Shown: piece after piece, positions 13,880-57,625 of the stretch
How the letters are laid out: each line of letters starts with the position of its first letter
Position numbering within the stretch: position 1 is the first letter of the stretch
NCBI GenBank assembly: GCA_964016885.1
Contig: OZ024740.1
Coordinates: 366,172,001 to 366,236,000, forward strand
Direction of reading: 5' to 3'
DNA: 64,000 bases
Source of the DNA: Eledone cirrhosa
Lineage: Eukaryota
Notes under the pieces: model-generated
What the model was told of the DNA's origin: nothing
The model's database searches: none
The model's input: only the letters and a program-made list of their open reading frames with translations
Program-made: the position numbers and the translations under genes

Positions 13880-13898
13880 ATGTATGTATGTATGTATG

Positions 13899-16692: not shown

Positions 16693-16760
16693 ATGTATGT
16701 ATGTATGTATGTATGTATGTATGTATGTATGTATGTATGTATGTATGTATGTATGTATGT

Positions 16761-18732: not shown

Positions 18733-18878
18733 AAAATCAATGTCACACTGGTTGTATCTTTTATTGTTTGTTTTAACTGGCGAAAGCACAGATAAGTTAA
18801 TCGATATTCTATTGAGCGACCCACAGAGATGTCAACGGTTCGATTAGTCCAGCTGATGTAAATATTTAAAATAGATAT

Positions 18879-19514: not shown

Positions 19515-19700
19515 GGCGGTGGATTGGCAGTATCGGTAGAGGGTCGGACGCCATGCTTTCCAGCATAGTTACGTCCCTTTACGATCTGAGTTCAAATCCC
19601 GCCGAGGTTGACTTTGCCTTTCATCCTTACGGGGTTGATAAAATAAAGTACCAGTAATGCACTGGGTAATTGCTGGCCTTGTGCCTAAAGTAGAAACAAT
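19515..19700 (+). mobile_element. Full-length tRNA-derived SINE (Meta-domain type)
   Basis: A/B boxes, core, (ATT)n tail; nearly identical to 51503-51690. Confidence 0.88.
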
Positions 19701-26971: not shown

Positions 26972-27184
26972 GAATGCCATGGTTGACGGAGGCTCGGCTC
27001 TGTAAGGTATAGTAATTTTTAACCGTTAAAACAATTGTAAATTGTTTAAAACTTGAACCAAATTGTTGATAAAGACACCCTCCTCCTCGTGAGAGGGGTC
27101 TTTCTGTCCATTATTTGGCCCTTCGGGGTTAAATAACCAGTTATTGGGGTTTTGTACCCAAAATTTCATTTTAAACAAAAAAAC

Positions 27185-29281: not shown

Positions 29282-29316
29282 GTGGTCTTTCCCATCTTTT
29301 CCACTCTATTTTAAAC

Positions 29317-32300: not shown

Positions 32301-32736
32301 AGGTGCCGTCAGCCGGGCATGTCCGAGATGCGCGCAGGGCGACGAAACCGTCCTGCACGCACTCGTCCAGTGTCCGAAAATTGCTGACTTGTGGGTTTAT
32401 GTCGAACACCTGCTGTCGCGTTTAGGACGGATCCAGCTATCATCTGAGTCTATCGTGAGGATTGCCCCGCCCTCCTCCTTTAGCCGGGAAGGGCAGGCAG
32501 TTTTTATCTGTCTGGTGGCCATGGCGAAAGAGATAGTATGGTGGACACGTTTGAAAGGGCTGAAGACGAGCACTTACCTCTTCGGTGATGCTCTGATTGA
32601 CTTTTTCAAATTTCATTTGAAAAGGAAAATCAGAGTAGAGAAGGAAGTGCTCTCTTCCCAGCATTTTGTTGAAAGATGGGTGAGAGAAGCAAGAATGGCC
32701 CGAGTGAATGGGCCGACTCTGAGTATATATCTGTAA
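29317..32736 (+). CDS. Tx1 ORF2: APE endonuclease + reverse transcriptase + C-terminal Zn finger, 1139 aa
   Basis: SINARGL, SET, GDWN, LDR, TDH; NFRPITLLN, LDQSKAFD, QGCPLS, YADD; CPRC..ETVLHALVQC. Confidence 0.97.
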   Translation: MTSLRIGSINARGLGSSWKQGHLLNDLRSLNIDVVAISETRISEARAFAPIFGGYDVYASPSRPGSGGGVAVLFRRGLDLAIRAIFLDPEGKLVVLDVTSGDGQAFRLVAVYAPTGAGRPDFFRRLETFLGTSRSLVLVGDWNGILDARWDCVGLADRGGGCKSLTNLLRRFELSDRYRLDFPNVPMWTWTNRIGSSRSYLDRVFCREIDRSSIGCPQFKIVSYTDHKFVICVLDLDRLHRRGPGYWKLNASLPARKAYRDRISELVKRALTGAIVNNKWWFALKRAIRIESIRFSKALAIEKNRAEGELVRKLDEALSKGIATDVLAAKLALDQFFNAKHEGCVVRARVRALRHEGTKAVQWARVAEARRGNKATIRSLVDHDGRMLLDPGQMCEAFQQHFAQLFGGSGGPGRGMDFSVYLDGLPRLSATEAKCCEKPITAAEVREAMTGCTRGKSPGLDGLPYELYVQMPDLFGGLLADVYCNWQQNGRIPSSVSRGAVALLRKDPNKGDNIDNFRPITLLNTEFKILAKVLAKRLALVVGGLVGEAQTCAIPDRSIHDNLHLMRYIVERVAREPGTGGSLINLDQSKAFDRVDHRYLAAVLRAAGFGPVFRGWIAAMHSDICSVVRVNGHLSEPFNIMRSVRQGCPLSSLLYVLTLEPLLHKLETLRGVPRELGCGRSVSAYADDVTVVVSNAKHIEAIGTTLREYEAVTGAMINQEKSVGLQLGTWRGRSMPSNSVVGRWTDGPVKLLGVWFGPDLQTDKNWDEVTSRVASLTQKWAERKLSLKGRAEVANAYIASVICYRLTVVPCPKPRLTALERLLFRFLWKGRAPMVRRSICCQHPLRGGLGMPWLMMRRHALRLRHLHLFLDGDQVWSPFARRVFPQLVSLTELQSWVKRRPRGSAWRLECLQALTALDQSGNVIGGNSTSAFYRGLVEGKSDDVLGETLGVDENQLANLFGRTFGPGPMDNFQKSLAWQCYRGALPVRDKLYRHGGAVSRACPRCAQGDETVLHALVQCPKIADLWVYVEHLLSRLGRIQLSSESIVRIAPPSSFSREGQAVFICLVAMAKEIVWWTRLKGLKTSTYLFGDALIDFFKFHLKRKIRVEKEVLSSQHFVERWVREARMARVNGPTLSIYL

Positions 32737-32996
32737 ACTAAAGGTGGAAAACTGGGAGAGGGCACTTGCCTTGGTGGTCAGGGTCATTGTGGCTTTTTAC
32801 TGGGCTTTCTCCACAAATGTCCCTCCGAAGTCTCCCCCCTATTGGGGAATTTTTCATTGTTATTTTCATTGTTATTTTTGTTACATCCTCTGTTTTTGTT
32901 TTTTTACACGCAGAAATGCCCATTTGTACCGTCCTGCATTGTCCTGCACTGTCCTTAATGTCTACTTTATGTAAACCCTTGTGGTTAATAAAGAAA

Positions 32997-33052
<56 letters not shown>

Positions 33053-33065
33053 GTTGTTATTACTC

Positions 33066-33246
33066 TTTGAGTCTCAGTCATTGATGTTAGTTAACTGGAA
33101 AGTTTGTTGAAATGAATATCAAGCCACTACCTGCAGCCTCAGATATTCAGGACGTATCGGAGGGTTCTTGCTGTTCCCAGCAAGCATGCCTTTTGAAGCG
33201 TTCCAAAAAGCGTGAAGGGGCCAATTTTCTTTAACCATCCCTGGAA
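33066..33246 (-). mobile_element. Dong/R4 family A, short 3' fragment
   Basis: 3' UTR plus last codons; (ATT)n on both sides. Confidence 0.9.
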
Positions 33247-33275
33247 TATTATTATTATTATTATTATTATTACTA

Positions 33276-34614
33276 TTTGAGTCTCAGTCATTGATGTTAG
33301 TTAACTGGAAAGTTTGTTGAAATGAATATCAAGCCACTACCTGCAGCCTCAGATATTCAGGACGTATCGGAGGGTTCTTGCTGTTCCCAGCAAGCATGCC
33401 TTTTGAAGCGTTCCAAACAGCGTGAAGGGGCCAATTTTCTTTAACCATCCCTAGAAACCTTTTGAGATAGTCCCTAGTGCGCCTATGACAATCGGGATCA
33501 CTTTGACTTCATGGCAGTTCCAAATTCTTTTTACCTCCCACTTTAAGTCCTGGTAACGGTTAATTTTCTTCCTCTCCTTCTCTTGCACTCTCGTGTCGAA
33601 TGGGCAGGCCACATCCACAATCAGGCACGATCTTTTTTCTTTGTCCACAACCACGAGGTCAGGTCTATTGTGTTCCAGTTTCTTGTCCGTCTGTATCCTA
33701 AAATCCCACAGCACCTTCACCTGATCGTTTTCTATCACCGACTCTGGCTTATGCTCATACCACTTCTCAGAATGTGGTAAATTGTTTACTTTGCATAGGT
33801 GCCAGTGGATCACCCTGCCCATCACATCATGTCTCCAGCCCTTACAGTGAGTCTGGGCTAGGTGTTTACACTCGGATACAATGTGAGCCACAGTCTCCTC
33901 TCTCTCTCCACAGATCCTGCACAGTGGGCTAGCCTCCTCCTTGTAAATATGGTGTTTCAACCACTTCGTTTTGAGGGCCTGCTCCTGCGCAGCCATTAAC
34001 ATTCCTTCTGTAGCCTTTTTAAGGTCTCCTCTTTTTAACCAGTTCCATGTCTGTGGATCTCTAAATTCAGTTTTCTCAAAGAAGGTACTATGAAGGGATT
34101 TTTCCTGAAGGCTGCTCTTTCTCCTTGATGTTATTTCCTCGTTGGACATCCCTGGCCTATTGTCTCCTCCTTCAGTACAGTTCTGAGCATTGGCTCCTTA
34201 CTATCAGTCACGTATTTGTGTAGGTTGTTTTTCTCCATCTGAACACAGTCCTCTATGCTGATAAGACCTCTTCCACCTTCAGATCTCCTTAAGTAAAGTC
34301 TATCGACATCACTCCTCTTGTGGAACATGTTGTAGATAGTCAATAGCTTCCTAGTCTTCCTATCCATTTCTTTTTGTTCAGCAACATTCCATCTCAGAAT
34401 TCCCGCACTGTACCTAATAATAGACACAGCTCGGGAATTTACTGCACTTATGGCATTCCTACTGTTCAGATGTGACTTTAATACGCTCCTTACTCTCCGA
34501 ATGTATTCAGTTCTTATCAATTCCTTCATTTTTTTGTTCTTGATGTCATCAGCCTCCAGAACACCCAAATACTTGTATCCCTCTTCAGAGTCAATTTCCT
34601 TTATCATCTCACCT
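33276..34614 (-). mobile_element. Dong/R4 family A, 1.3-kb 3' fragment (frameshift, stop)
   Basis: ORF pieces 33451-34149 and 34131-34607 closely match 24352-26817. Confidence 0.93.
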
Positions 34615-35286: not shown

Positions 35287-38200
35287 GGGTTTTTGTACCC
35301 AATATTTATTTTAAACAAAAAAAAAAAACAACATGGCTACGAAAAAGAAATTTCATAGGTCACTCCCACTCATTCCGTCTTCTTCTTCCTCAATCATCAC
35401 TACAGCAGAGAGAAGATTGTCTCTCTCCCTCCCTTCTTTAAATGTGTCTCTCTCCCTCCCTTCTCTTTCGCAAGCGACGAAAGAAAAGAAAAGTCTCGTG
35501 CAAAACGTGCAAGGTTTCTCCACGACGACGACGACAGCGACGAAACAGGTGTGCGGGAAATACGAAAACCCAGTTCATTCGTCTGACGTCAGGAATAATA
35601 GCAGTAGCAGCCGTAATAACAACAGCAACAGTGACAATGAAAACAACAGTAGCAGCCGCAACAGCATCACCAGCAGCATAAACAACAACAGCATTAGCAG
35701 CAGCAACACCAACAACAACCACAGCAACAGCGGCGGAGGCAGTAGTCGTAGTACCTGCAGCAACAACAAAAGTAACAGCATCTCTGACGACAACAACAAC
35801 AACAGCAGCAAAGAAAAACCAATCTCATTTGCAGGTATTGCGAAAAACTTGGAAACAATCCTCATAACAAATGAGGAATTAGCGAAAGCGAAGAAGATGG
35901 TGACAAAGAATGGACACCGAGCAATCTGCAAGGCAGCGGAAACATTTTTCGAAGCCCAAGAGCACTGTACGGTCACGTACCGTACAGTAAGTACAAAATC
36001 CCGTAGGGTGGAAAGAGCCACAGAGGCCCAAATACAAAAAGCCTTGGGGTCTGTGTGGCAGCGGAAAACGCACATCACCCGAGGCAAAAAATATGCCACC
36101 GTAGACGTACTTTTTGCCACACCCCAGGAGGCAAAGGCCCAATCCGTAGTGACCCTAAGGAGCGAGGAAATGGTGTTGGTGCCCTCCTACTGCGGGCAAA
36201 AAATTGTGAGGGTCAAACTGACCCACGTCCCCCCCCCCGGAATGACCCCTTCTTGGCTGGCCGCGTCTGTCCTCGTTGGAATCGAGGACAAAACAACTGT
36301 ACTGCAAGTACAGAAAGAAGTAAGCTTCTTCAGAAAAAAGTCGGCTCCTCCATTGAGATGCTAATCCAAACCAACCAGGAGTGCATCGAAGCTATCCCGG
36401 ATGTGATAGACTTCGATAACGGCACTCAACTGCCCATAAGTGTTGAGGGCAAACGCCCGAAATGCTTTCGCTGTGGATCGAAGACTCACCTCAGGGCCTT
36501 CTGCAACGAGAAGACCCTGAGAAAGGAGAAAACCCCCCTCCTTCCGAATCCGGCTCCACGGCTACCAGCAACAGGACAAGCGGCAACCAGGAACGATAGG
36601 TCCGTGGCACCCATACCCACGCCACGGAAATCAAAAACAGCAGCAGCAGTGGAAATATTAACAACAACAACAGCAATACCAAATGCAGCTGCAACAGAGA
36701 CTCCAGTGCAAACATCACCAACAACAACAAGTGAAAGAGTGGAGCTGGTACCCCTCCCCGACCTCACAGAATCAGACATGGAGTGTGAGGTGGGAGAGGG
36801 ATGGCAAAAGGTCGCAAGAAGGCACAAACGCAGAAGCAGCGCATCGTCGCCTTTGAAAAGGGAGGAAAGAAATGAGAAAAGGGTAAAGTCTACTGCAAAG
36901 AGACCCACAGCAGCAACACCACCAACACCATCACCACCCACACCAGCACCACCATCACCACCGGCGACAACCCCACCGCCAACAACACCTTCAACACCAC
37001 CACCACAAGCACCAACATCGCAAACACAACAACAAAACACACACACCCAGCAACAACGACAAGAAAATAGCAGAACCACACCCCACCCCCAGAAAAACAA
37101 ATGCACGGCAATAAACACACACAACAAGAAACTAATGACTTACATAATTGAACACACAGACATTTCACAACAGGACTACATAATACCAGCACCAATCAAA
37201 ACGCCAACTAACATAAGACTGCTAAAAATAGCACAGAAACAATACACAAACATTAAAACGAAATTCCCCAACGCAGTTGGTGATTTCAGGGACCTAGGAG
37301 GAACCATCAATCGAAGAGTATATTCAGACATTCTCTTAGAAGAGCCGACGACCAGCCGAAGGGACGATTCAACGGTCCCTTCACCAGACGATCAAGTGAA
37401 AAGGGATGTAAAAACCATCCCTCCTCTACCAAAAGTACGGTAAGTGGTCTTTCCCATCTTTTCCACTCTATTTTAAACATGACCTCACTCAGAATAGGCA
37501 GCATAAATGCGCGTGGCTTGGGGTCGTCATGGAAGCAGGGTCACCTGCTCAACGACCTCAGGTCACTAAACATAGATGTAGTGGCCATCAGCGAGACCAG
37601 AATCTCCGAAGCACGGGCCTTCGCACCGATCTTTGGCGGCTACGATGTGTACGCATCTCCCAGCCGTCCTGGATCGGGGGGAGGAGTTGCTGTGTTTTTT
37701 CGGAGAGGTTTGGATCTCGCCATACGGGCCATCTTCCTGGACCCAGAGGGTAAGCTGGTGGTGCTGGACGTAACCAGCGGAGACGGGCAAGCTTTCAGGC
37801 TAGTGGCCGTCTATGCCCCGACAGGAGCAGGGCGGCCTGATTTTTTCCGGCGTCTGGAGACCTTTCTTAGAACGTCCCGCTCTTTAGTGTTAGTGGGCGA
37901 TTGGAACGGGATCTTAGATGCACGCTGGGACTGTGTGGGATTAGCGGATAGGGGTGGAGGGTACAAGAGCCTCACCAACCTGCTCAGGCGTTTTGAACTG
38001 TCTGACAGGTACCGATTGGATTTCCCGAATGTGCCAATGTGGACTTGGACAAATCGCATAGGGTCATCCAGATCATTTCTAGATAGAGTATTTTGTAGGG
38101 AAATAGATAGGTCTAGCATAGGCTGTCCACAATTCAAGATAGTCAGCTACACGGACCACAAATTCGTGATCTGTGTGCTTGACTTAGATAGGCTTCATAG

Positions 38201-40756
38201 ACGAGGACCCGGCTACTGGAAGCTAAACGCGTCCTTACCAGCGCGCAAGGCCTACAGAGACCGGATTAGCGAACTAGTTAAGCGGGCGTTGACGGGGGCC
38301 ATCGTCAACAACAAGTGGTGGTTTGCTCTGAAAAGAGCGATTAGAATAGAATCCATTAGGTTTAGTAAGGCTTTAGCAATAGAGAAAAATAGAGCAGAGG
38401 GAGAACTAGTTAGAAAATTAGACGAGGCGCTTAGCAAAGGCATTGCGACCGACGTGCTTGCGGCGAAATTGGCCCTTGACCAATTCTTCAATGCAAAGCA
38501 CGAAGGCTGCGTTGTCAGAGCAAGGGTGCGTGCTCTCAGACACGAGGGGACGAAAGCCGTTCAATGGGCCCGAGTGGCGGAGGCGCGTTGTGGCAACAAA
38601 GCCACGATCCGGTCTTTGGTGGACCACGACGGGCACATGGTACTCGATCCCGGGCAAATATGTGAAGCTTTTCAGCGACACTTCACTCAGCTGTTCGGGG
38701 GCAGCGGTGGGCCGGGTCGAGGGATGGACTTTAGTGTCTACCTCGACGGACTGCCGCGGCTCTCGGCCACTGAGGCGAGGTGTTGCGAAAAGCCGATGAC
38801 AGCCGCTGAAGTAAGGGAGGCAATGACTGACTGCACAAGGGGTAAATCGCCTGGTTTGAATGGTCTGCCCTATGAACTTTACGTACAGATGCCAGACTTG
38901 TTCGGAGGCCTCTTGGCGGACGTCTACTGCAACTGGCAACAGAACGGGAGAATTCCCAGTTCTGTGAGCCGAGGAGCGGTGGCACTGCTGAGAAAGGATC
39001 CGAACAAGAGGAATAACATAGATAATTTCCGGCCCATAACTCTGCTAAACACAGAGTTCAAGATTTTGGCCAAGGTGCTAGCAAAGAGGTTGGCGCTTGT
39101 CGTTGGTGGTCTGGTGGGAGAGGCGCAGACATGCGCCATTCCCGACAGATCCATCCACGACAACCTCCACCTCATGCGATACATCGTAGAGAGGGTAGCT
39201 AGGGAACCTGGCACGGGTGGGTCCTTGATCAATTTAGATCAGTCGAAAGCTTTCGATAGGGTCGACCATCGTTACCACGCAGCAGTCCTGAGGGCGGCTG
39301 GCTTTGGGCCCGTCTTCAGAGGCTGGATCGCTGCCATGCACAGCGACATCTGCTCTGTGGTGAGAGTGAACCGTTCAACATCATGCGCTCGGTCCGCCAA
39401 GGATGTCCCCTCTCGTCCCTCTTGTACGTATTGACTCTCGAGCCATTACTGCACAAACTGGAAGCGGTGACAGGAGCAATGATCAACCAGGAAAAGTCAG
39501 TGGGCTTGCAGCTCGGCACCTGGAGAGGCAGGTCCATGCCGTCCAACAGCGTCGTCGGACGCTGGACGGACGGAGCGGTTAAATTGCTAGGGGTCTGGTT
39601 CGGTCCGGACCTCCAGACGGACAAAAACTGGGACGAGGTGACGAGCAGGGTGGCTTCTCTTACCCAGAAATGGGCGGAGAGGAAGATATCCCTGAAAGGT
39701 CGAGCGGAGGTGGCTAACGCGTACATCGCGTTTGTCATCTGCTACCGCCTGACCGTCGTACCTTGTCCTAAGCCTCGCCTGACTGCGCTGGAGCGTTTGC
39801 TCTTTCGCTTTTTGTGGAAGGGACGCGCTCCGATGGTCAGGCGGTCCATCTGTTGTCAACACCCGCTACGTGGAGGGCTGGGAATGCCGTGGCTGATGAT
39901 GCGCAGGCACGCGCTCAGGCTACGACATCTCCACCTCTTCCTCGACGGTGATCAGGTGTGGTCGCCGTTTGCTAGACACGTATTTCCCCAGCTCGTTTCC
40001 TTGACGGAGCTGCAGTCCTGGGTCAAGCGAAGACCGAGAGGGAGCGCCTGGAGACTGGAATGTCTTCAGGCGCTCACAGCCCTCGACCAATCGGGAAATG
40101 TGATCGGTGGACGAAACCATCCTGCACGCACTCGTCCAGTGTCCGAGCATTGCTGACTTGTGGGTTTATGTCGAACACCTGCTGTCATGTGTAGGACGGA
40201 TCGGGCTATCATCTGAGTTCATCGTGAGGATTGCCCCGCCCTCTTCCTTTAGCCGGGAAGGGCAGGCAGTTTTTATCTGTCTGGTGGCCATGGCGAAAGA
40301 GATAGTATGGTGGACACGTTTGAAAGGGCTGAAGACGAGCGCTTACCTCTTCGGTGATGCCCTGATTAACTTTTTCAAATTTCATTTGAAAAGGAAAATC
40401 AGCGTAGAGAGGGAAGTGCTCTCTTCCCAGCATTTTGTTGAAAGATGGGTGAGAGAAGCAAGTATGGCCCGAATGAATGGGCCTACTCTGAGTACGTATC
40501 TGTAAATTAAAGGTGGAAAACTGGGAGAGGGCACTTGCCTTGGTGGTCAGGCTCACTGTGGCCTTTTGCTGGGCTTTCTCCACAAATGTCCCTCCGAAGT
40601 CTCCCCCCTATTGGGGAATTTTTCATTGTTATTATTTTGTTACATCCTCTGTTTTTGTTTTTTACGCGCAGAAATGCCCATTTGTACCGTCCTGTATTTT
40701 CCTGTACTGTCCTTAATGTCTACTTTATGTAAACCCTTGTGGTTAATAAAGAAAAC
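35287..40756 (+). mobile_element. Tx1-type LINE copy 2 (5' UTR clipped, frameshifts, internal deletions)
   Basis: ORF1 split (35333-36364, 36055-37443); ORF2 split (37479-39434, 39383-40156, 40107-40505). Confidence 0.96.
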
Positions 40757-40783: not shown

Positions 40784-43700
40784 GCATTTATCTTGCTTTA
40801 TGTTCATACAAGTTATCACCAAGTCACAACCAGTGACCTCAAGAGACAACAAGGTCCGCCATGTTCAAGAAAGAACATACATATTCACACATGCATCTTT
40901 AGTGTTTAGACTTGTGATGTACTTATATTGACAGAATCTTCCTTAGTATATGGGCAGTTCCCATTAGTACTATCTTTTGTATTTCTCCTATACGCGGGTT
41001 TCCTGGGATTTGCGATATGTAATCATTAGACCCCTTAGGTATCATTCCCAGAGCGCCTACAACCACTGGTATTGTTTTAGTTCTCAATTTCCACTTTTTT
41101 CCAATTTCTATCTCCAGGTCCTTATACTTGCTCAATTTTTCAAATGTTTTTATAGATACATTCTTGTCTATTGGAACAGACATATCAATTAGCAGGCATA
41201 CCCTCTTTTGAAAGTCCTTCAATATTATATCAGGTCTATTTGCATCTATTTTTCGGTCTGTTTGGATGCTAAAGTTCCACAAGATTGAGATGTGATCTTT
41301 TTCAAGTATGGGAGGTGGTTGATGCTCCCACCAATTCTTTTGATGGGGCAGGTCAAAATGCTTACACATTATCCAATGTATGTATTGTGCAGCTCTGTCA
41401 TGCCTGTTTAGGTATTCGGTTGGAGATACAGGACTGCACATTGAAATTATATGGTCACTTTTCTCTGGTTGTTTTTTGCATACACGGCATAATGGGCTGC
41501 ACCCATTTTTTATTATGTTGGCTTGGTAATTTTTTGTTGGCAGACACTGATCTTGTGCTGATATAATCAGTCCTTCAGTCTCCGATTTCAGTCCAGAGGA
41601 TGCCAACCACTGATGGGTTAAAGTTTTGTCAACATCAGGATTGTTAGCTCGCTCTGGGTATTTTCCATACAGAGGCTTTTCTTGCCATTTCTTAGCCAGT
41701 TTCTGTAGCAGTTCTTTCTTTGCAGTTACTTTTACCTGCTTTGCTTTTTCTGTGTTTTCCATTTCAGCAGTAAATGGGACTTCTGAAATTTGTAGTCCAT
41801 TACTGTATCTTTGTGCATCTTTTGTAATGGAATATGATCTTTTGATGCTTTCGTGTTTCAAAACGAGTTTGATCATCCAATCATGTGATTCCCTTAGATA
41901 TGTAGATAATCCAATTGTTGCAGTTTTCAACGCAATGTCTAACTGGATTAACCCACGTCCTCCTTCTTTCCTAGGGAGATATATTCTATCTATATCTGCC
42001 TTAGGGTGATGCATTCTGTGCATGGTTAAGAATTTTCGAATTTTTGTATCGAGCCTACGGATCTCTGTGCTTGACCAGTTGATGACATTGTAACTGTAGG
42101 TTACTACTGGTATGGCAAGCGTGTTTATGGCATCGATCCTATTCCTTGCATTCAATTCCGTTCTCAAGATTGCTCTTACTCTGCGGTAACATTCCTTCCT
42201 TATCCTTTCCCTCATTGTCGAGTGCTTGATTCCGTCTCCTTCACAAACACCTAGATATTTGTAAGTTTTTTCTTGATCAAGTTCTCTTATCACGTTCCCC
42301 CGATCAAGATTAATGTCTGAACTCTTCAGCAGCTTTCCTCTGGTGAACGTTGCTTTGGCGCATTTATCTAGTCCAAACTCCATTTTAATGTCATCACTGA
42401 ACTGCTCCACAGTGGATAATAGCCCTTGCAATTGTTCATCATTTTTTGCAAATAGTTTCAGGTCATCCATGTAGAACAGGTGATTAATGGTTTTGTCATA
42501 GACTTTATATCCATGTTTTGTTTCATTGAGCATTTTACTTAATGGTATAAGTGCGATGCAGAATAAAAGCGGTGATAAAGAGTCACCCTGAAAAATTCCA
42601 CAATTAATATTAACTTCTCCAGCTTCCAGTGATTTTGTTTCACTATTCAAAAGGAGTGTCGTTTTCCATGTCTTCATACTGAATGACAAAAACCTCCTGA
42701 CAACGGGGGATATTTTGAAAATCTCTAAACATTTTTCAATCCAACTGTGTGGCAAACTATCGAATGCTTTTTTATAATCTATCCAAGCAATTGATAGATT
42801 ATTGTGTCTATTATGACAATCTTCCAGTATCATTTTGTTAACCAGAAGCTGATCCTTACAGCCATATGAGCCTCGTTTACACCCTTTCTGCTCAATGGGA
42901 AATAGGTCATTTGTTATCAGGTGGTCATATGTGTATTCAGTTAGGACTGATGTTAAAATTTTATACATTGTGGTCAAGCAAGTTATCGGTCTGTAATTTT
43001 TGGGACTGTTTGTCTCATCATTCTTCGGAAGCAGGAATGTAATGCCGTTAACTAGCCATGATGGTATCTTTTCTGGCTCCTTAACTATTTCATTGTAAAG
43101 TTGGGCTAACAGCTCATGAGACTCTGTGAAGGCATTTATCCAAAAGTTTTGTATTTTGTCTTTTCCTGGGGATTTCCATTTGCTGGTTTTTCTTAGAGCC
43201 AAGCGCAACTGTTCAACTGTTATATTTTCCCATATTTGTTCCTCAAGGTGAGCTGTATCTTTCATTTGTCTGTCTATCCATGGGGCATGTATGTTATGAA
43301 CTTTTTCTTCGGCCCAGATCTTTTCCCAGAATTCTTGCACTTCCTCCTTGGGTGGTATTGATTTAGCAGTTATTGTTGACTTACCAATTTTTCTGTAGAA
43401 GTTTCTTTGGTTGTTTTTGAACATATTATTGTCCTTATAGAATCTAGATCGTTTTTCAAAGCGCCTTATACGAGCAGCTTTGGCCGACACTTTTTGCTTG
43501 ATTATTTCTATCAGCATGTCTATGTCACATGTTGATTTTATACTGTACTTTTTTCTCAATTTTCTAAGTTTAGTTTGTTTAACATGTTCACCTACTTTAT
43601 AGTTTGTTAAAATTTCTATGTCAGATCGGAGAAGGTTTATTTGGCGATTGATGTTCTCTTGCCAAGTAGATTTATTGTGGGAATTCCTTTGTTTTTTCAT

Positions 43701-44735
43701 CTTCACTCCACATAAGTGAGTGGTGACTTTAGCCGATGCATAATAGAGATAATTTAAATCAGTAATGTTTAGTTTGTTTGTGATGATAATGTTTTTGAGA
43801 ATTATGTTAGTCTTGTGTATTATCTTTTGGTTCTGTTTGGAGTTCTGGATCTTAGGGAGGGTGTCTCGTTGCCCCATGTCAGATTCTTTCATTTTCATCC
43901 ATTCGATCATAATTTCATCCTTCAAGTTGGCAAGTTCATTCTCATTCATTTCTTTATCATTTACGATCTCATTATTTTCATTTGGAGTTTCATCCTGAGC
44001 ATGCACTCCCTCCACTTTTTCGATCCTTTCTTTAATTTGTTCTGTTGCCAGTGATTCCGCCCCCACTCTGGGATTCGAAGTGTTACAGTTTACCTCGTTT
44101 TCACTGACACATGTTTCATTTTCCCACCGCTGACTTTGTGCTAATAGCTTGATCTGATCAATTTCTATATCAGTTAGTAACTTTTTTCTTACAATATTTC
44201 TTCGTATATTGGCTAGTTTGTTACTGTCAATATAGCCTCTGTTTTCGGGATGTTTCTTTTTCCAGTTGATATATGTCTGTTCTGTATTCGATGTATTTGA
44301 TGGGTAGTACATGGCAGTGTAGAAAGCCTCAAGGACTTCTTTATTATCTTCCCTTGACCATTTTTCTCTCTTTTTCTTTGGATTTCTTGGCGGTGAGCAT
44401 GGAGGGCCAACAGTAGGAGTATTCCGGTTATGGGAGGTCTCCAGCTCCGAAGTGATGGGAAGGTTTGAACCATTAGCTGATTTTTCGACCCCAGTCTGGT
44501 TCCTCTCTGAAGGACGCGGCCCTTTTTTACCCGGGTGACGGCCGATCCGGTATGAGATTTTATCATTAGACATTTACTTTATGTTGTCGCGTTTTATCCT
44601 TATCCGCCAAGGGGTAATCATTTCGTGTTACCACTTCTAGAACGAGTGTCAACCAAGACTAAAGAGGTCGTTCTCCCCTAGAGACACGGCTATTCCCCGC
44701 CGGCCGCCATCCCGGTATTTCTTGGTCACGGGGTT
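40784..44735 (-). mobile_element. Apparently full-length Dong/R4 family B element
   Basis: ~160-nt structured 5' UTR, single long ORF, 3' UTR and (TAA)n tail. Confidence 0.95.
40923..44573 (-). CDS. Dong/R4 family B protein: Myb-like N-terminus, RT, CCHC, RLE; 1216 aa
   Basis: KWSREDN..Y..W..HP..LAN.RR.I..K.LL..EI; DYKKAFD; QGDSLSP; YMDD; CRVCKKQPEKSDHIISMC; RHD; RPDIILKD; KLSKYKDL. Confidence 0.96.
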   Translation of the reverse strand: MSNDKISYRIGRHPGKKGPRPSERNQTGVEKSANGSNLPITSELETSHNRNTPTVGPPCSPPRNPKKKREKWSREDNKEVLEAFYTAMYYPSNTSNTEQTYINWKKKHPENRGYIDSNKLANIRRNIVRKKLLTDIEIDQIKLLAQSQRWENETCVSENEVNCNTSNPRVGAESLATEQIKERIEKVEGVHAQDETPNENNEIVNDKEMNENELANLKDEIMIEWMKMKESDMGQRDTLPKIQNSKQNQKIIHKTNIILKNIIITNKLNITDLNYLYYASAKVTTHLCGVKMKKQRNSHNKSTWQENINRQINLLRSDIEILTNYKVGEHVKQTKLRKLRKKYSIKSTCDIDMLIEIIKQKVSAKAARIRRFEKRSRFYKDNNMFKNNQRNFYRKIGKSTITAKSIPPKEEVQEFWEKIWAEEKVHNIHAPWIDRQMKDTAHLEEQIWENITVEQLRLALRKTSKWKSPGKDKIQNFWINAFTESHELLAQLYNEIVKEPEKIPSWLVNGITFLLPKNDETNSPKNYRPITCLTTMYKILTSVLTEYTYDHLITNDLFPIEQKGCKRGSYGCKDQLLVNKMILEDCHNRHNNLSIAWIDYKKAFDSLPHSWIEKCLEIFKISPVVRRFLSFSMKTWKTTLLLNSETKSLEAGEVNINCGIFQGDSLSPLLFCIALIPLSKMLNETKHGYKVYDKTINHLFYMDDLKLFAKNDEQLQGLLSTVEQFSDDIKMEFGLDKCAKATFTRGKLLKSSDINLDRGNVIRELDQEKTYKYLGVCEGDGIKHSTMRERIRKECYRRVRAILRTELNARNRIDAINTLAIPVVTYSYNVINWSSTEIRRLDTKIRKFLTMHRMHHPKADIDRIYLPRKEGGRGLIQLDIALKTATIGLSTYLRESHDWMIKLVLKHESIKRSYSITKDAQRYSNGLQISEVPFTAEMENTEKAKQVKVTAKKELLQKLAKKWQEKPLYGKYPERANNPDVDKTLTHQWLASSGLKSETEGLIISAQDQCLPTKNYQANIIKNGCSPLCRVCKKQPEKSDHIISMCSPVSPTEYLNRHDRAAQYIHWIMCKHFDLPHQKNWWEHQPPPILEKDHISILWNFSIQTDRKIDANRPDIILKDFQKRVCLLIDMSVPIDKNVSIKTFEKLSKYKDLEIEIGKKWKLRTKTIPVVVGALGMIPKGSNDYISQIPGNPRIGEIQKIVLMGTAHILRKILSI

Positions 44736-45747
44736 TTCTTTTTGTTTTTTTTTTTAAATTGTTATTATCATGAGTGGTTCCTTAATGTGAGCATTGCGTG
44801 GCTTAAGAATGAAATTATTAATAACTGTCTCCACTCCAGGCACAAGGCCAGCAATCACCCAGTGCATTACAATAATATAATATACTTTTTGTTGTAGTTG
44901 GCTGTTATTGTTGTTGGCTATGTCGGTGGTGGTGCCGGGGCTTTTTATATTGTTGGTGAGGAAGGGGTGAGCCAGCAGTCCCATAGTTGTTGATGTTGAC
45001 GTTTGGCCGGTGGCCAGGTCACTAAGTCAATCTATTTATATCTTTTGCTAGCCTCTCCCTTGTCTAGTGATACCGCCACCTTCCCCTTTCTCTCTCAAGT
45101 TAACAGGGGAATAGTGGTGGTAGCAATGAAGGAGTGGTGGCGGCGGCGATGGGATAGTGGTAGCAGTGATGGATGGGGTGGGGTGGTGGCAGCGGTGGCG
45201 TTGTGGTTACTGATATGTAGTATCTATGAGTTTGTGTTCGTATGTTTAATATATATTTTTATTATATATTGTGTTGACATATTCCCGTAAAATTGGAATT
45301 AAACATTTTGTGAAAATTTGAGACAATAATAATAGTAATTATTATTATGATGCTGGGATTGATGGTGGTGGTGGTGAAATTGCCGTTATCTGGCTGTTAT
45401 ATTTAGTGTGATGGGATAGGTGGTGTATCAAGTTTCTGGTGTTGGTGAAATTGCTGTTATTTGGCTGTTCTATATAGTGTAGACAGAGGGTGTTTTCTTC
45501 CATTTATAACCATTTTCTTTTTTTGAATACAAAATATATAATACAAAATTGAATATTTGAGCGATACAACAATATAATATGGATCCGAAACTTTATGGGA
45601 CCTCATTCGGTGGTTTATGCAACATTTGTACTAAGAATTGTTATTTCACAATTGATTTAAATATGTTAAAAATCAAAAACTTATTATTATTATTAAAATC
45701 AAAAACTTATTATTATTATTAAAAATCAAAAATCAAAAATCAAAAAC

Positions 45748-45800: not shown

Positions 45801-48800
45801 GAATGCCATGGTTGACGGAGGCTCGGCTCTGTAAGGTATTGTAAACTTTGACCGCTATAACAATTGTAAATTGTTTAAAACTGTAATCAAATTGTAGACA
45901 AAAACACCCTCCTCCTCGTGAGAGGGGTCTTTCTGCCCGTTATTTGGCCCTTCGGAGTCAAATAACCGCTTATTGGGGTTTTGTGCCCAATATTTATTTT
46001 AAACAAAAAAATAAACAAGGCCACTAAAAAGAATTTTCATAGGTCACTCCCACTCATTCCGTCTTCTTCTTCCTCAATCGTCACTACAGCAGAGAGAAGA
46101 TTGTCTCTCTCCCTCCCTTCTCTAAATGTGTATCTCTCCCTCCCTTCTCTTTCGCAAGCGACGCCAGTCAAGAAAAATCACGTGAAAATCATGGAACATT
46201 TCTCCACGACGACGACAATGACGAAAAAGGTGTGCGGTAAATACGAAAGCCCATTTCATTCGTCTGACGTCATGAATAATAGCAGTAGCAGCCGTAATAA
46301 CAGCAGCAGCAGCAACAGTGACAAGGAAAACAACAGTAGCAGCCGAAACAGCATCAGCAGCAGCATAAACAACAACAGCATTAGCAGAAACAGCAACAAC
46401 AACAACAGCAGCAGCAACAACAACAACAACCACAGCAACAGCAACAGCGGCGGAGGCAGTAGTCGTAGTACCTGCAGCAACAACAAAAGTAACAGCAGCT
46501 CTGACGACAACAACAACAACAGCAGCAAATAAAAACCAATCTCGTTTGCAGGTATCGCAAAGAACCTGGAAACCATCCTCATAACAAATGAGGAATTACA
46601 GGAAGCGAAGAAGATGGTGACGAAAATCGGACACCGAGCAATCTGCAAGGTAGCCGAAACATTTTTCGAAACCCAACAGCACTGTACGGTCAAGGTACCG
46701 TACAGTAAGCACAAAATCCCGTAGGGTTGAAAGAGCCACAGAGGCTCAAATACAAAAAGCCTTAGGGTCTGTGTGGCAGCGGAAAACGCATATCACCCGA
46801 AGCAAGAAATATGCCGCCGTAGACGTGCGTTTTGCCACACCCCAGGAGGCAAAGGCTCAATCCTTAGTGACCCTAAGGAGCGAGGAAATGGTGTTGGTGC
46901 CCTCCTACTGCGGGCAAAAAATTGTGAGGGTCAAACTGACCCACGTCTCCCCCGGGATGGCCCCTTCTTGGCTGGCCGCGTCTGTCCTCGTCGGAATCGA
47001 GGACAAAACAACTGTACTGCAAGTACAGAAAAAAGTAAGAGAAGATTGGGTCGGCACCTCCATTGAGATGTTAATCCAAACCAACCAGGAGTGCATCGAA
47101 GCTATCCCGGATGTGATAGACTTCGATAACGGCACTCAACTGCCCATAAGTGTTGAGGGCAAACGCCCGAAATGCTTTCGCTGTGGATCGAAGACTCACC
47201 TCAGGGCCTTCTGCAACGAGAAGACCCTGAGAAAGGAGAAAACCCCCCTCCTTCCGAAACCGGCTCCACGGCTACCAGCAACAGGACAAGCGGCAGCCAG
47301 GAACGATAGGTCCGTGGCACCCATACCCACGCCACGGAAATCAAGAACAGCAGCAGCAGTGGTATTATTAACAACAACAACAGTAATACGAAATGCAGCT
47401 GCAACAGAGACTCCAGTGCAAACATCACCAACAACAACAAGTGAAAGAGTGGAGCTGGTACCCCTCCCCGACCTCACAGAATCAGACATGGAGTGTGAGG
47501 TGGGAGAGGGATGGTAAAAGGTCGTAAGAAGGCACAAGCGCAGAAGCAGCGCATCGTCGCCTTCGAAAAGGGAGGAAAGAAATGAAAAAAGGGTAAAGGC
47601 TACTGCAAAGAGACTCACAGCAGCAACACCACCAACACCACCAACACCACCCACACTAGAACCACCATCACCACCGGCGACAACCCCGCCGCCAACAACA
47701 ACAACACCTTCAACACCACCACCACAAGCACCAACATCGCAAACACAACAACAAAACACACACACCCAGCAACAACGACAAGAAAATAGCAGAACCACAC
47801 CCCACCCCCAGAAAAACAAATGCACGGCAATAAATACACACAACAAGAAACTAATAACTTACATAATTGAACACACAGACATTTCACAGCACGACTACAT
47901 AATACCAGCACCAATCAAAACGCCAACGAAGATAAGACTGGTAAAATAGCACAGAAACAATACACAAACATTAAAACGATATTCCCCAACGCAGTTGGTG
48001 ATTTCAGAAACCTAGGAGGGACTCTCAACCGGAGAGTATATTCGGACATACTTATAGAAGAGCCGACGACCAGCCGAAGGGACGATTCAACGGTCCCTTC
48101 ACCAGACGATCAAGTGAAAAGGGATGGAGAAACCATCCTTCCTCTACGAAAAGTACGGTAATAGTCTTTCCCATCTTTTCCACTCCATTTTAAACATGAC
48201 CTCACCCAGAATAGGCAGCATAAATGCGCGTGGCTTGGGGTCGTCATGGAAGCAGGGTCACTTGCTCAACGACCTCAGGTCACTAAACATAGATGTAGTG
48301 GCCATCAGCGAGACCAGCATCTCCGAAGCACGGGCCTTCGCACCGATCTTTGGCGGCTACGATGTGTACGCATCTCCCAGCCGTCCTGGATCGGGGGGAG
48401 GAGTTACTGTGCTATTTCGGAGAGTTTTGGATCTTGCCATACGGGCCATCTTCCTGGACCCAGAAGGTCATCCAGATCATATCTACATAGAGTATTTTGT
48501 AGGGAAATAGATAGGTCTAGCATAGGCTGTCCACAATTCAAGATAGTCAGCTACACGGACCACAAATTCGTGATCTGTGTGCTTGACTTAGATAAGCTTC
48601 ATAGACGAGGACCCGGCTACTGGAAGCTAAACGAGTCCTTACCAGCGCTCAAGGCCTACAGAGACCGGATTAGCGAACTAGTTAAGCGGGCGTTGACGGG
48701 GGCCATCGTCAACAACAAGAGGTGGTTTGCTCTGAAAAGAGCGATTAGAATAGAATCCATTAGGTTTAGTAAGGATTTGGCAATAGAGAAAAATAGAGCA

Positions 48801-51461
48801 GAGGGAGAACTAGTTAGAAAATTAGACGAGGCGCTTAGCAAAGGCATCGCGACCGACGTGCTTGCGGCGAAATTGGCCCTTGACCAATTCTTCAATGCAA
48901 AGCACGAAGGCTGCGTTGTCAGAGCTAGGGTGCGTTCTCTCAGACACGAGGGGACGAAAGCCGTTCAATGGGCCCGAGTGGCGGAGGCGCGTCGTGGAAA
49001 CAAAGCCACGATCCGGTTTTTGGTGGACCACGACGGGCGCATGCTACTCGATCCCGGGCAAATGTGTGAAGCTCTTCAGCGACACTTCGCTCAGCTGTTC
49101 GGGGGCAGCGGTGGGCCGGGTCGAGGGATGGACTTTAGTGTCTACCTCAACGGACTGCCGCGGCTCTCGGCCACTGAGGCGGAGTGTTGCGAAAAGCCGA
49201 TAACGGCCGCTGAAGTACGGGAGGCAATGACTGGCTGCACAAGGGGTAAATCGCCTGGTTTGGATGGTCTGCCCTATGAACTTTACGTACAGATGCCAGA
49301 CTTGTTCGGAGGCCTCTTGGCGGAGGTCTACTGCAACTGGCAACAGAACGGGAGAATTCCCAGCTCTGTGAGCCGAGGAGCGGTGGCACTGCTGAGAAAG
49401 GATCCGAACAAGGGGGATAACATAGATAATTTCAGGCCCATAATTCTGCTAATCACAGAGTTCAAGGTTTTGCCAAGGTGCTAGCAAAGAGGTTGGCGCT
49501 TGTCGTTGGTAGTCTGGTGGGAGAGGCGCAGACATGCGCCATTCCCGACAGATCCATCCACGACAACCTCCACCTCATGCGATACTTCGTAGAGAGGGTA
49601 GCTAGGGAACCTGGCACGGGTGGGTCCTTGATCAATTTAGATCAGTCGAAAGCTTTCGATAGGGTCGACCATCGTTACCTAGCGGCAGTCCTGAGGGCGG
49701 CTGGCTTTGGGCCCGTTTTCAGAGGCTGGATCGCTGCCATGCACAGCGACATCTGCTCTGTGGTGAGAGTGAACGGTCACCTGTCGGAACCGTTCAACAT
49801 CATGCGCTCGGTGCGCCAAGGATGTCTCCTCTCGTCCTTCTTGTACGTATTGACTCTCGAGCCATTACTGCACAAACTGGAGACGTTGAGGGGCGTCCCA
49901 CGCGAACTAGGATGCGGAAGATCCGTGTCAGCATATGCGGACGATGTCACCGTAGTGGTGTCGAATGCCATACACATCGAGGCGATCAGCACTAAGAGAA
50001 TACGAAGCGGTAACATGAGCAATGATCAACCAGGAAAAGTCAGTGGGCCTGCAGCCATGCCGCCCAACAGCGTCGTCGGACGCTGGACGGACGGAGCGGT
50101 TAAATTGCTCGGGGTCTGGTTCGGTCCGGACCTCCAGACGGACAAAAACTGGGACGAGGTGACGAGCAGGGTGGCTTCTCTCACCCAGAAATGGGCGGAG
50201 AGGAAGCTATCCCTGAAAGGTCGAGCGGAGGTGGCTAACGCGTACATCGCGTCTGTCATCTGCTACCGCCTGACCGTCGTACCTTGTCCTAAGCCCCGCC
50301 TGACTGCGCTGGAGCGTTTGCTCTTTCGCTTTTTGTGGAAGGGTCGCTACGTGGAGGGCTGGGCATGCCGTGGCTGATGATGCGCAGACACGCGCTCAGA
50401 CTACGACATCTCCACCTCTTCCTCGACGGTGATCAGGTGTGGTCGTCGTTTGCTAGACACGTCTTTCCCCAGCTCGTCTCCTTGACAGAGCTGCAGTCCT
50501 GGGTCAAGCGAAGACCGAGAGGGAGCGCTTGGAGACTGGAATGTCTTCAGGCGCTCACTTCCCTCGACCAATCGGGCAATGTGATCGGTGGAAACTCCAC
50601 CTTGGCGTTCTATAGAGGATTAGTGGAGAAGAGCGACGACGCACTTGGAGAAACTCTAGGCGTCGACGAAAATCAACTAGCCATTCTCTTCGGAAGAACT
50701 TTCGGGCCGGGACCTATGGACAACTTCCAGAAATCTCTGGCCTGGCAGTGCTACCGAGCAGTTCGGGATAAACTCTACAGGCATGGAGGTGCCGTCAGCC
50801 GGGCATGTCCGAGATGCGCGCAGGCCGACGAAACCGTCCTGCACGCACTCGTCCAGTGTCCGAAAATTGCTGACTTGTGGGTTTATGTCGAACACCTGCT
50901 GTCGCGTGTAGGACGGATCCGGCTATCATCGTGAGGATGCCCGCCCTCTTCCTTTAGCTGGGAAGGGCAGGCAGTTTTTATCTGTCTGGTGGCCATGGCG
51001 AAAGATATAGTATGGTGGACACGTTTGAAAGGGCTGAAGACGAGCACTTACCTCTTCGGTGATGCCCTGATTAACTTTTTCAAATTTCATTTAAAAAGGA
51101 AAATCAGAGTAGAGAGGGAAGTGCTCTCTTCCCAGCATTTTGTTGAAAGATTGGTGAGAGAAGCAAGAATGGCCCGAGTGAATGGGCCTACTCTGAGTAC
51201 GTATCTGTAAATTAAAGGTGGAAAACTGGGAGAGGGCACTTGCCTTGGTGGTCAGGCTCACTGTGGCCTTTTGCTGGGCTTTCTCCACAAATGTCCCTCC
51301 GAAGTCTCCCCCCTATTGGGGAATTTTTCATTGTTATTATTTTGTTACATCCTCTGTTTTTGTTTTTTACACGCAGAAATGCCCATTTGTACCGTCCTGT
51401 ATTGTCCTGCACTGTCCTTAATGTCTACTTTATGTAAACCCTTGTGGTTAATAAAGAAATC
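45801..51461 (+). mobile_element. Tx1-type LINE copy 3, complete ends but degenerate
   Basis: Same 5' start as copy 1; multiple stops, frameshifts and deletions; (ATT)n on both sides. Confidence 0.96.
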
Positions 51462-51502
51462 ATTATTATTATCATTATTATTGTTATTATTATTATTATT
51501 AG

Positions 51503-51690
51503 GGCGGTGGATTGGCAGTATCGGTAGAGAGTCGGACGCCATGCTTTCCAGCATAGTTACGTCCCTTTACGATCTGAGTTCAAATCCCGCCGAGGTTAAC
51601 TTTGCCTTTCATCCTTACGGGGTCGATAAAATAAAGTACCAGTAATGCACTGAGTAATTGCTGGCCTTGTGCCTAAAGTAGAAACAATTA
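51503..51690 (+). mobile_element. Full-length tRNA-derived SINE
   Basis: A/B boxes; (ATT)n on both sides. Confidence 0.88.
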
Positions 51691-51704
51691 TTATTATTAT
51701 TCCT

Positions 51705-52472
51705 TGGAGGGTCGTGTGGGTTGGTTTTGCTCGTAAAATCTGTCCAGCAATTTATTCCTGAAGCATTCGAACCAAATGTCCGTAATATCGGAGCGGTGAT
51801 CTCTTAATTCGAAGATGTAGTACCACGTCATCCGCAAATTTCAGCCGACTAATCCTACACCCGCCAGTCTCGATACCACTTCCTACCCGGTTGCGCATGT
51901 CAATCCTGTCTATGAAGATTATGAACACGAGAAGTGACAGTGCGCGCCCTGGGCGGAGTCCGACATTGAATGGTTTCGACTTAGCACAATTTATCCCAAC
52001 ACAAATACTCGAGCATTCGAGGGCAACAAGAAGCTGTCCATCGATCCCAAACTCCTGCAGAACCTTCTACAAAAGATCCCGTGGAACGCAGTCTTATGCC
52101 TTTTCGAGGTCAACAAAAAAGCATATACTTCTTGACAATATTCCCACAATTTCTCATAGACCGCAGTGTGAATATTTGGTCGGCTGTGTTGCGTCCGGGT
52201 GAAAACCACCCTGTTCGTCTGTTAGCTTGAACTTGACAATCTCCCATCTTTCTGTCAGACACAGCAAAGACTTTATCGGGGAGGTTAACAAGGATATCCC
52301 TCTATAATTGGAGCAATCTCTCTTGCTCCCTTTTTAAGAATTGGATTATCACTCCCGATTGTCATGGTTTAGGTGCCTTTCCAGAGAAGTAGGCCACTCA
52401 GCACTCACAAGTTTAATGCTTTTAACATCTCGGACCGAATTTCATCCTCCTCAGCAGCCTTGCCACATTTGA
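51705..52472 (-). pseudogene. Degenerate RTE-like reverse transcriptase fragment
   Basis: Reverse strand: GKAA..DEI..EMLK, FVDLEKA*D.VPR, EFGIDGQLL, GLR.G..LS, FADDVVL, with frameshifts. Confidence 0.78.
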
Positions 52473-52880: not shown

Positions 52881-53067
52881 ATAATTGTTTCTACTTTTGG
52901 CACAAGGCCAGCAATTACCCAGTGCATTGCTGGTACTTTATTTTATCGACCCCGTAAGGATGAAAGGCAAAGTTAACCTCGGCGGGATTTGAACTCAGAA
53001 TGGCAAGGGCCGTAACTCTATGCGTCAAAGCATGGCGTCCGACCCTCTACCGATACTGTCAATCCAC
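52881..53067 (-). mobile_element. tRNA-derived SINE
   Basis: Reverse complement of the 51503 family. Confidence 0.85.
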
Positions 53068-55930: not shown

Positions 55931-55981
55931 AGTTTAAGCAAAGAATCGCTGCTTTCACCTTTAACGGGATCTTCTGAAACT
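55931..55981 (-). ncRNA. Type I hammerhead, U4A variant (inverted pLTR copy)
   Basis: Reverse-complement homolog of 58869-58919; one mismatch in stem II. Confidence 0.65.
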
Positions 55982-56125
55982 AAAAGAATCAATCTGTGAA
56001 CGCAGAAGTAAATATTTCGAAAAACGTTGCAACCGAAGGAAGACAGGAAGACGATACGTTGGTTCGTGGAAACGTTCCCTGGCAAAGAACGGAAAAAAAA
56101 ACGAAGATAATACGTCATTATTTAG

Positions 56126-57625
56126 GATTTTAGATAGAATTATACCTGAAATTAGAAGTTTGGCCCCTCTTGCACTGTGGAACAATTCTTTCGCGGTGAT
56201 TGATTGGTTCAACGGCATATGCAACAAGGAACATTGCCGTTTTATCCAATCCGACATCAATAATTACTACTCCTCCATCACTTTACCACTCCTTAGAGCT
56301 ATCAATTTCGCTAAAACACTCACAGTGGTTAAGGATTTCGAAGTTGATGTCATCCTCAAGGCCCGTAAGTCGGTGATTAATTTCGACGACTCTATTTGGA
56401 TTAAAAAATCTAATAGTACCCCATTCGACGTGAGTATGGGCGCCAGCGATTCTGCGGAGCTTACTGATCTTATCGGCCTGTTCGTTCTTTTCTCTATCAA
56501 GGAAGAATTCCCCAACGTGGGCGGTGGTTTGTACCGTGATGACGGTCTTTTGACCATGACAAAGTGCGGCCCTCGTGCTTGCGACAGGTTCAGAAAAGAA
56601 CTCACAGCCTTCTTTAAAGGCTTCAACCTCTCTATACAGGTTGAGGCCAACCTCTCGGTCGTTAATTACCTCGAGGTTACCCTCAATTTGTCGAATGGCT
56701 TGCACTACCCGTATAGAAAGCCGAATGATACGCTTAATTACATAAGTAAGCATTCTAACCATCCTGCCAGCATAACCAAGAACCTGGTAAGAAACGTTTC
56801 TTTGAGACTTTCCCGTCTATCTACAAACGAACATATTTTCACCGACCATTCCACATATTACAATGAAGCTCTTGCTCGGAGTGGATTTGTCGATTAGGTA
56901 GTATATACAGAGTATGAGAATAGACCTAGGGAAAATAGATCCCGACGCATTATATGGTATAACCCACCATATAATATGGAGGTGGCCACACCATTAGCTA
57001 AGATCTTTCTCTCCTTTATTATGAAGCATTTCCCCCCAGCACATAAATATAGTAAAATTTTTAATAGAAATACCATTAAAATGTCTTACTCTACGACTCC
57101 TAACCTTGCACATAACATCACAGCTTCAAATTTAGCTAAATTATCTAGTCGTAGGAACACGTGCAACCCTGTAGCTAGTACTAACTGTAATTGTAGGAAT
57201 CGGTTGACTGCCCCCTATCCAGGAAATGCCTCCCTAGTAACATTGTCTACAAATGTAAGGTTGAAACACCCACGCTCCGTAGGGCCTACATAGGGTTAAC
57301 CGCCAATAGATTCAAGCAGCGTCTTTACATGCATACCCATTCTTTTCTTAACCCTTTAAGAAGGAATATGACGTCACTTTCAGCTTATATCTGGAGTCTA
57401 AAAGACAACCACACCCAATATAAGTTACACTGGGAGATCCTAGCTAGGGCTAGATCGTATAACGGAAATAAAAGACCATGTGACCTCTGCGACGCTGAAG
57501 CTTTGGAAATACTCTACGCCAAAGACCACATCTTAAACAACAAATCTGAGGCAATTTCGACTTGTAAACATAAATTGCACAAAACTTTCCTGTATTACAG
57601 CCCCACATTATACCCTAACGGATAG
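56126..57625 (+). pseudogene. PLE reverse transcriptase + GIY-YIG endonuclease, disrupted
   Basis: DI.NYYSSI, MGA, GGLYRDDGL, PYRKPN, SNHP, IIWYNPPY, CNCRN, NIVYKC..AYIGLT, LSAYIWSLK, CDLC..E..IL, LN..SE..CKH. Confidence 0.9.

Follow-up and report, generated by a model that had tools for sequence, protein, structure and literature searches.

A SINE and a Tx1-like LINE of the L1 group end in the same predicted 3' hairpin and (ATT)n tail and are likely a stringent-type pair

Eel UnaSINE/UnaL2 and zebrafish ZfL2-1/-2 present well described stringent-type pairs with a stem-loop at the 3' end (PMC4176376; for this and all other papers cited here, our statements extend to the accessible parts of the source). 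The elements described below resemble them in that LINE and SINE both carry a short 3' stem-loop with conserved loop, exchangeable stem and short-repeat tail. Unlike the partners in those pairs, which belong to the L2 clade (PMC4176376), the present likely partner is of the L1 group, and binding by its ORF2 protein is putative. SINEs with the tail of an L1 element include ZmSINE2 and ZmSINE3, paired with LINE1-1_ZM in a plant, and SINEX-3_CR, paired with L1-1_CR in a green alga (PMC3472496, PMC3747384); a survey of 2012 gives, in its accessible part, just three L1-tail SINEs among 58 pairs, none of them animal (PMC3472496). With these the present pair shares an L1-group LINE and a conserved 3' hairpin whose compensatory stem is common to the SINE (PMC3472496), whereas the plant and algal matches, as far as the available text describes them, are longer (45-80 nt) and involve no microsatellite target (PMC3472496, PMC3747384).

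Crocodilian SINEU and Tx1-Mar are similar in another respect: there, too, a SINE is linked to a Tx1 LINE, the two have a common target preference, and tandem insertion beside the LINE takes place (PMC4494074). Their link, however, consists in the shared target and heads, their tails are poly(A) and the 3' half of SINEU-1 matched no LINE, whereas the present pair is linked by a shared 3' hairpin and its SINE has a tRNA-type head (PMC4494074). Several Tx1 families target microsatellites, namely Kibi (TC)n, Koshi (TTC)n and crocodilian families (TTCC)n/(TTTC)n, and Dong targets (TAA)n (PMC4494074, PMC3812793). The LINE of the present study likewise sits in fixed orientation within a simple repeat; its (ATT)n is absent from the targets named for these Tx1 families in the parts available and is Dong's repeat on the other strand. 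In the literature within our coverage, outside which lie most subscription papers, Repbase, Dfam and SINEBase, we found no published SINE sharing its 3' end with a Tx1 element and no published partner LINE for an octopus SINE. Stringent-type SINE/LINE pairs as such are already known, and the animal L1-group partner, none having been found in print, is likely the new aspect. Octopus tRNA-derived SINEs were reportedly described by Ohshima and Okada in 1994; they likely come from the same host group, and the SINE described here may be one of these families.

The window, i.e. the whole stretch of 64,000 nucleotides analysed, is repeat-rich animal DNA. Its single match to a named animal protein is with Octopus sinensis and spans 5% of the query, which makes an octopod host likely. 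It contains five 3' ends of a Tx1-like LINE, four of subfamily A (5775 on the minus strand, 32998, 40756 and 51461) and one of subfamily B (19461), which is 28% diverged from A. Subfamily A comprises a copy with ORF1 and ORF2 open and (ATT)n at either side (26972-32998, +), a copy without SINE (35315-40756, +), behind whose end lie an ATT tract and then an R4/Dong-like LINE in antisense, a near full-length copy with both ORFs broken and (ATT)17 directly before its 5' end (45801-51461, +), and a 5'-truncated copy (5775-10278, -) with its ATT tract at 5751-5774. The last two, and the 3' fragment of subfamily B (18870-19461, +), were delimited by tblastn and self-blast; the tail of the subfamily B fragment differs from the LINE end quoted in a preliminary description of this DNA. 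In the intact copy, ORF1 (27185-29281, 698 aa) carries a CCHC knuckle, and ORF2 (29317-32736, 1139 aa) contains, according to Pfam, an AP endonuclease (PF03372), a reverse transcriptase (RT, PF00078) and zf-RVT (PF13966). The element thus has the domain set of the L1 group: a separate ORF1, and an ORF2 with AP endonuclease, RT and C-terminal zinc knuckle. Compared with solved structures, ORF2 matches human L1 ORF2 best (E 1.5e-52) and also R2 (E 1.3e-21), and matches come from these two clades only. Judged from its sequence, the LINE is a member of the L1 group, its RT being nearer to L1 than to R2 and its domain set fitting. In a quick tree that includes no named Tx1 protein, the ORF2 of the window and unnamed distant relatives form a clade with 100% support that is not joined to the LINE of locus L043; as this tree leaves the clade unsettled, the element is called Tx1-like. 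No Tx1 names occur in the protein clusters matching ORF2, and no relatives of the LINE were found in viral contigs. Target-specific insertion, common in the Tx1 clade, is present in this small sample: (ATT)17 immediately precedes both full-length 5' ends of subfamily A, and (ATT)n follows each of the five 3' ends.

Two smaller features of the LINE may be mentioned. The 5' UTR of subfamily A has a short stem round a CTCGT loop (at 27083 and 45912, +), and RAD reads cover the last 90 nt of the LINE (51372-51433) at roughly double the depth of the remaining 3' UTR, which may reflect either very short truncated LINE copies or SINEs of a subfamily whose tail is longer and of the LINE A type.

The SINE is 184 nt long and is represented by 10 copies or fragments in the window. 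It shows the traits of its class, being short, non-coding and dispersed, with 5'-truncated copies and a simple-repeat tail. In the full-length copy of the short subfamily at 51503-51686 (+), the head carries Pol III boxes: a B box at 51578-51586 and, read by eye, an A-box-like stretch at 51513-51524 that agrees at 11 of 12 positions with what we take to be the consensus. Neither ARAGORN nor Rfam gave a tRNA match for this head; undetectable tRNA homology is usual for SINE heads. An Rfam match to U2 over the SINE (E 3.3) was taken as chance. The (ATT)5 tail of this copy (51687-51701, +) adjoins a decayed RTE-like RT fragment on the minus strand (51702-52400), which has an internal deletion and ends at the tail. 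A second full-length copy (19515-19698, +), 2.2% different from the first, lies behind the subfamily B tail. A copy without the first 18 nt (5584-5749, -) lies directly behind the ATT tract of the LINE at 5775, and head to tail behind its own ATT tail follows an older SINE of a long form (5355-5566, -), distinguished by a C-rich tract before the hairpin and also seen as loose ends in the reads of all four runs. A further copy (52886-53067, -) is situated away from LINE ends and has one ATT at its 5' junction, and a 5'-truncated copy consisting of the tail only (44824-44870, -) lies behind an ATT-like run. Head-to-tail succession of SINEs occurs twice in the window and at many joints in public contigs. 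The SINE is very deep in the reads of all four runs, and no tail variants occur among the read matches listed.

Outside this host, the SINE core pattern has no match in viral contigs and genome contigs and two loci in metagenomes, one of which is inserted in the DNA of another animal and differs in its tail. In the latter (L001:1501-1860), a 31-nt core is exactly as in the SINE of the window, body and tail differ and the element ends in (ATT)n; this core could be a domain conserved among SINEs. A SINE search of two assemblies (uncultured Arenicella, G001, and G002) gave weak matches only, the best with E 0.13, and one locus from it (L048) proved a chance match on reading. By eye, the SINE is unlike the bivalve MetaSINE rows in the part of PMC4824008 available to us (supplement file 2; 66-bp Meta domain after the head).

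The preliminary description held that the SINE and Tx1 ends are alike and identically spaced. Both ends are indeed present as described, and the pattern CCTTGTG-N8-AGAAA, with at most one mismatch, has 10 matches in the window against 0.51 expected, nine of them LINE or SINE 3' ends. When the comparison is anchored at the final base ahead of the ATT run, so that the ends are in register before (ATT)n, the last 22 nt of the SINE share 15 of 22 positions with every one of the five LINE ends (shuffle p 6.5e-5). Upstream of these 22 nt the four successive 22-nt blocks match at only 7, 3, 4 and 2 of 22 positions, which makes the common segment short; SINE and LINE of the window thus agree over just 22 nt at 68%, although LINE and SINE families are both young. 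Unanchored local alignment of the SINE tail is not significant with the last 760 nt of LINE A (p 0.17; 0.074 for the R4/Dong-like R4b) and modest with three distant relatives (p 0.012-0.016); a degraded long-form SINE copy gave p 0.04-0.19 with these three relatives. Four R4/Dong-like ends agree with the 22 nt of the SINE at 5-6 positions in register and at 7-11 at the best offset. A LINE fitting the SINE tail better was named earlier as the finding that would speak against a Tx1 partner. Comparison of tail and motif within the window excluded its R4/Dong-like, RTE-like and Penelope-like regions as better matches.

The letters shared by the two ends form the loop (CUNGU) and the closing C-G pair of a predicted 3' hairpin. 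In LINE A (51428-51461, +), according to the minimum-energy fold and pair counts, the inner stem (51437-51440/51446-51449) encloses the loop at 51441-51445 and is followed by AATAAAGAAA; in the SINE (51663-51686, +), GGC (51663-51665) and GCC (51671-51673) enclose the loop at 51666-51670, with AGAAA following at 51680-51684. LINE A thus reads AACC-CUUGU-GGUU and the SINE GGC-CUUGU-GCC, the stems differing by compensatory swaps. Across 11 distinct rows, 91% of the cells of the four-pair stem pair and three of the four pairs change at both sides. The covariation score is 0.48, against 0.17 for shuffled and at most 0.18 for slid stems; it was reached in none of 500 shuffles, a count that is no probability, since the structure was read off the same related sequences. 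The hairpin is part of the minimum-energy fold in six of nine short sequence windows and absent from the folds of the SINE at 5749, LINE B and the relative L016, and no folding z-score is significant. Conserved loop and compensatory stem are those of a stringent-type pair, with a short stem and unremarkable energies.

Relatives of ORF2 were fetched after the hairpin had been defined, to test the motif as a feature of the lineage. They comprise tandem arrays of a related LINE, with ORF2 41% identical to that of the window, in one bacterial metagenome-assembled genome, and evidently represent host DNA. Of 39 full-length loci, 36 were scored and three dropped for their short 3' regions. The SINE 12-mer is matched at 12 of 12 positions in 19 loci and at 11 or more in 35 of the 36, all tandem copies from one assembly, against 7-9 of 12 in 12 control regions; for the motif pattern this assembly has 59 exact matches, and one for the reversed control. 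The 12-mer always lies 704-726 nt downstream of ORF2, with AATAAA a further 25-40 nt on; the latter marks the apparent 3' end of these elements, because beyond it the sequence diverges and truncated next copies join there. Where a locus departs from the 12-mer, it is usually in the middle base of the loop (T, C or A); the stem stays the same. Both here and in the long SINE form the hairpin has a C-rich tract upstream of it, and the stem of the SINE is closer to that of these relatives than to that of LINE A; the relatives have no (ATT)n tail and carry a second hairpin before AATAAA. A shared 3' end, as known from stringent-type pairs, is found both as the anchored 15 of 22 positions and as the SINE 12-mer in distant relatives. 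More distant LINEs (L040, L041, L043, L046 and L047) are without the motif (7-9 of 12), so the hairpin motif appears lineage-specific. Because distant relatives carry the SINE's version of the hairpin near their apparent 3' ends, the modelled tail structure is likely a recognition signal of the Tx1 lineage.

The genome labelled uncultured Arenicella (G001; CAXXMW01 contigs, L003-L039, L042, L044, L045) contains a Tx1-like LINE in head-to-tail arrays on contigs of up to 94 kb, with a period of 6.4-6.8 kb, several subfamilies and a second covarying hairpin before AATAAA; this is host contamination of unusual tandem organisation. In a bacterial assembly entry, L043:2726-2844, a poly(A)-tailed L1-group LINE abuts a 5S rRNA gene and resembles the 5S-targeting Tx1 family that we take to be Mutsu.

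We propose that the partner of the SINE is a LINE of the Tx1 lineage whose ORF2 protein copies the SINE in trans, which the sequences make probable. The SINE likely borrows the copying enzyme of the LINE, because both end in the same predicted hairpin and ATT tail, and together with an L1-group, microsatellite-targeting LINE it would likely constitute a stringent-type pair. Subfamily A itself has about an even chance of being the driver; a different Tx1-lineage family, with a stem nearer to that of the SINE, may be the mobiliser instead. By analogy with L2-clade LINEs (PMC4176376, accessible part), Pol III would make the SINE RNA, ORF2 protein would bind its hairpin stem and loop, the LINE endonuclease would nick the AAT strand of an (ATT)n tract, and the (AUU)n tail would pair with the nick and prime reverse transcription. 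Each LINE or SINE insertion would leave a fresh ATT tract for the next one, so that later SINEs would land behind earlier LINEs or SINEs as separate events. The earlier suggestion that Tx1 mobilises the SINE and confers ATT targeting is thereby upheld indirectly, through the covarying hairpin, tail polarity, the motif of the relatives and overlapping ages; the adjacency of the elements does not count as support.

In broader terms, we lean slightly towards the view that stringent-type LINEs exist within the L1 group of animals, in a Tx1 lineage that reads a conserved CUNGU hairpin, drives a dominant SINE family and hands over its (ATT)n targeting. If this is true, (ATT)n tracts would be self-renewing landing pads, used by Tx1 and the SINE on one strand and by R4/Dong on the other. 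It would also mean that SINEs with an L1-group tail occur in animals too, speak for stringent recognition as the ancestral state of L1 and, provided that the host is an octopod, as the match to a named protein suggests, identify what drives SINEs in animals of which one, Octopus vulgaris, reportedly has 11.6% SINEs in its genome (PMC13282606, accessible part). The hairpin, which LINEs of 41% protein identity have in common and a high-copy SINE carries too, is a defined 13-nt element; with a copy at hand in which both ORFs are open, stringent recognition in animal L1-group elements is therefore directly testable.

The exact hairpin with its upstream C-rich tract in the Tx1-like lineage's own relatives argues against the main rival to a Tx1-lineage partner, which we regard as unlikely: that the SINE is moved by some unseen LINE from a different clade (CR1, L2, I or Nimb) which also has an (ATT)n tail, the Tx1-like end being left over from a previous partner or due to convergence and the ATT preference arising from pairing between tail and target. 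Recently active CR1, in 13 families, is described from Octopus vulgaris (PMC13282606), a bivalve L2-type SINE ends in ATT repeats (PMC4824008), both according to the available parts, and the match of the SINE to LINE A is short. The ATT tail, moreover, is not clade-specific, the unrelated L001 SINE combining the same core with another tail and (ATT)n; yet this other tail is without the motif (8 of 12).

The preliminary description placed a SINE, in the same sense, behind the ATT tract of three LINE copies, those ending at 5775, 19461 and 51461. The three joints are real, on the minus strand at 5775 and on the plus strand at the other two; 19461 belongs to the other subfamily, the first 18 nt are missing from the SINE behind 5775, and two of the five LINE ends are without SINE. 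At 51461, the (ATT)n tract (51462-51500, +) is the tail of the LINE A copy and likely the landing site of the SINE; RAD reads are cut at this tract (51454-51511). Adjacency at three of five ends departs strongly from uniform placement (p 2e-7). If SINEs choose among ATT tracts, p becomes 0.12 for 9 tracts or 0.06 for 11, the tracts having been defined post hoc, so that in the window adjacency does not exceed SINE density at ATT tracts. Because it is within what insertion into ATT tracts predicts, adjacency is no evidence for a partnership of LINE and SINE, and the SINE probably lies behind the Tx1-like LINE merely since both land in ATT repeats.

It is very improbable that the SINE is a passenger on LINE transcripts reading through the ATT tract (3' transduction), as also suggested earlier, or that LINE-SINE blocks were duplicated. 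It is true that the SINEs behind three of the five LINE ends are all members of a single young subfamily, and that the pair behind LINE A has the same minor allele at 51530, where most reads have the other base. But at the junction behind 5775 the SINE is 5'-truncated, the three joints differ in spacer and in downstream flank, the two most similar SINEs (2.2%) sit behind LINEs that diverge by 28%, and the LINE copy most similar to that at 51461 (40756, 3.0%) is without SINE. The SINE is, in addition, about 38 times as deep as the LINE 3' UTR in RAD reads and 6 times on the most cautious bins, a biased measure that is not a copy number.

A similarly slight probability attaches to a resemblance of the 22 nt by chance, with a hairpin that has no role: the match is short and AT-rich and the folding energies are unremarkable, but at the fixed anchor p is 6.5e-5, the stem shows compensatory changes and the hairpin prediction was confirmed in relatives fetched later.

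Insertion at ATT repeats is general in the window. All nine tracts of at least 27 nt abut a retroelement end. ATT lies within 8 nt of five of the six young SINE 5' junctions, including all three not behind a LINE (background 12%), and the sixth is 11 nt from a tract. Age profiles, whose comparison had been proposed earlier, overlap within the window, with pairwise divergences of 3.0-5.1% for LINE A and 2.2-5.4% for young SINEs. The same tracts are used by two further LINE families with RT and without AP endonuclease, which from their motifs we take to be R4/Dong-like; their 3' ends follow, in antisense, the LINE ends at 32998 and 40756. LINE and SINE carry (ATT)n in sense and R4/Dong-like elements (AAT)n. 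Although two of the five Tx1-like ends abut R4/Dong-like LINEs at shared tracts, Dong targets TAA repeats (PMC3812793) and Dong-R4 is active in octopus (PMC13282606, both in accessible part), mobilisation of the SINE by these LINEs is very improbable: their tails have the reverse polarity, agree with the SINE in register at just 5-6 of 22 positions and contain no hairpin motif (7-8 of 12).

Several other repeats were observed. At 24194-45800, Tx1-like and both R4/Dong-like families are nested in a stack, with ATT/AAT tracts of opposite polarity as joints; R4a (40923-44573, -) contains an open frame of 1216 codons, and a 210-bp duplication is located at 33037-33456. Penelope-like RT and GIY-YIG fragments, assigned from their motifs, lie at 55965-57625, the first of them without Pfam match, and 2275-2889. 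Direct repeats of 447 bp, 97% identical (13899-14345 and 15760-16205), surround 1.4 kb without a frame of 125 codons and resemble an LTR-like remnant. Finally, four copies of a 400-460 bp repeat (12076-12537, 13448-13898, 16315-16711 and 16945-17385) each end in (ATGT)n; several are situated within or beside (ATGT)n tracts, and the repeat, which has a short zinc-finger-like frame, presents a parallel case of a microsatellite-linked element.
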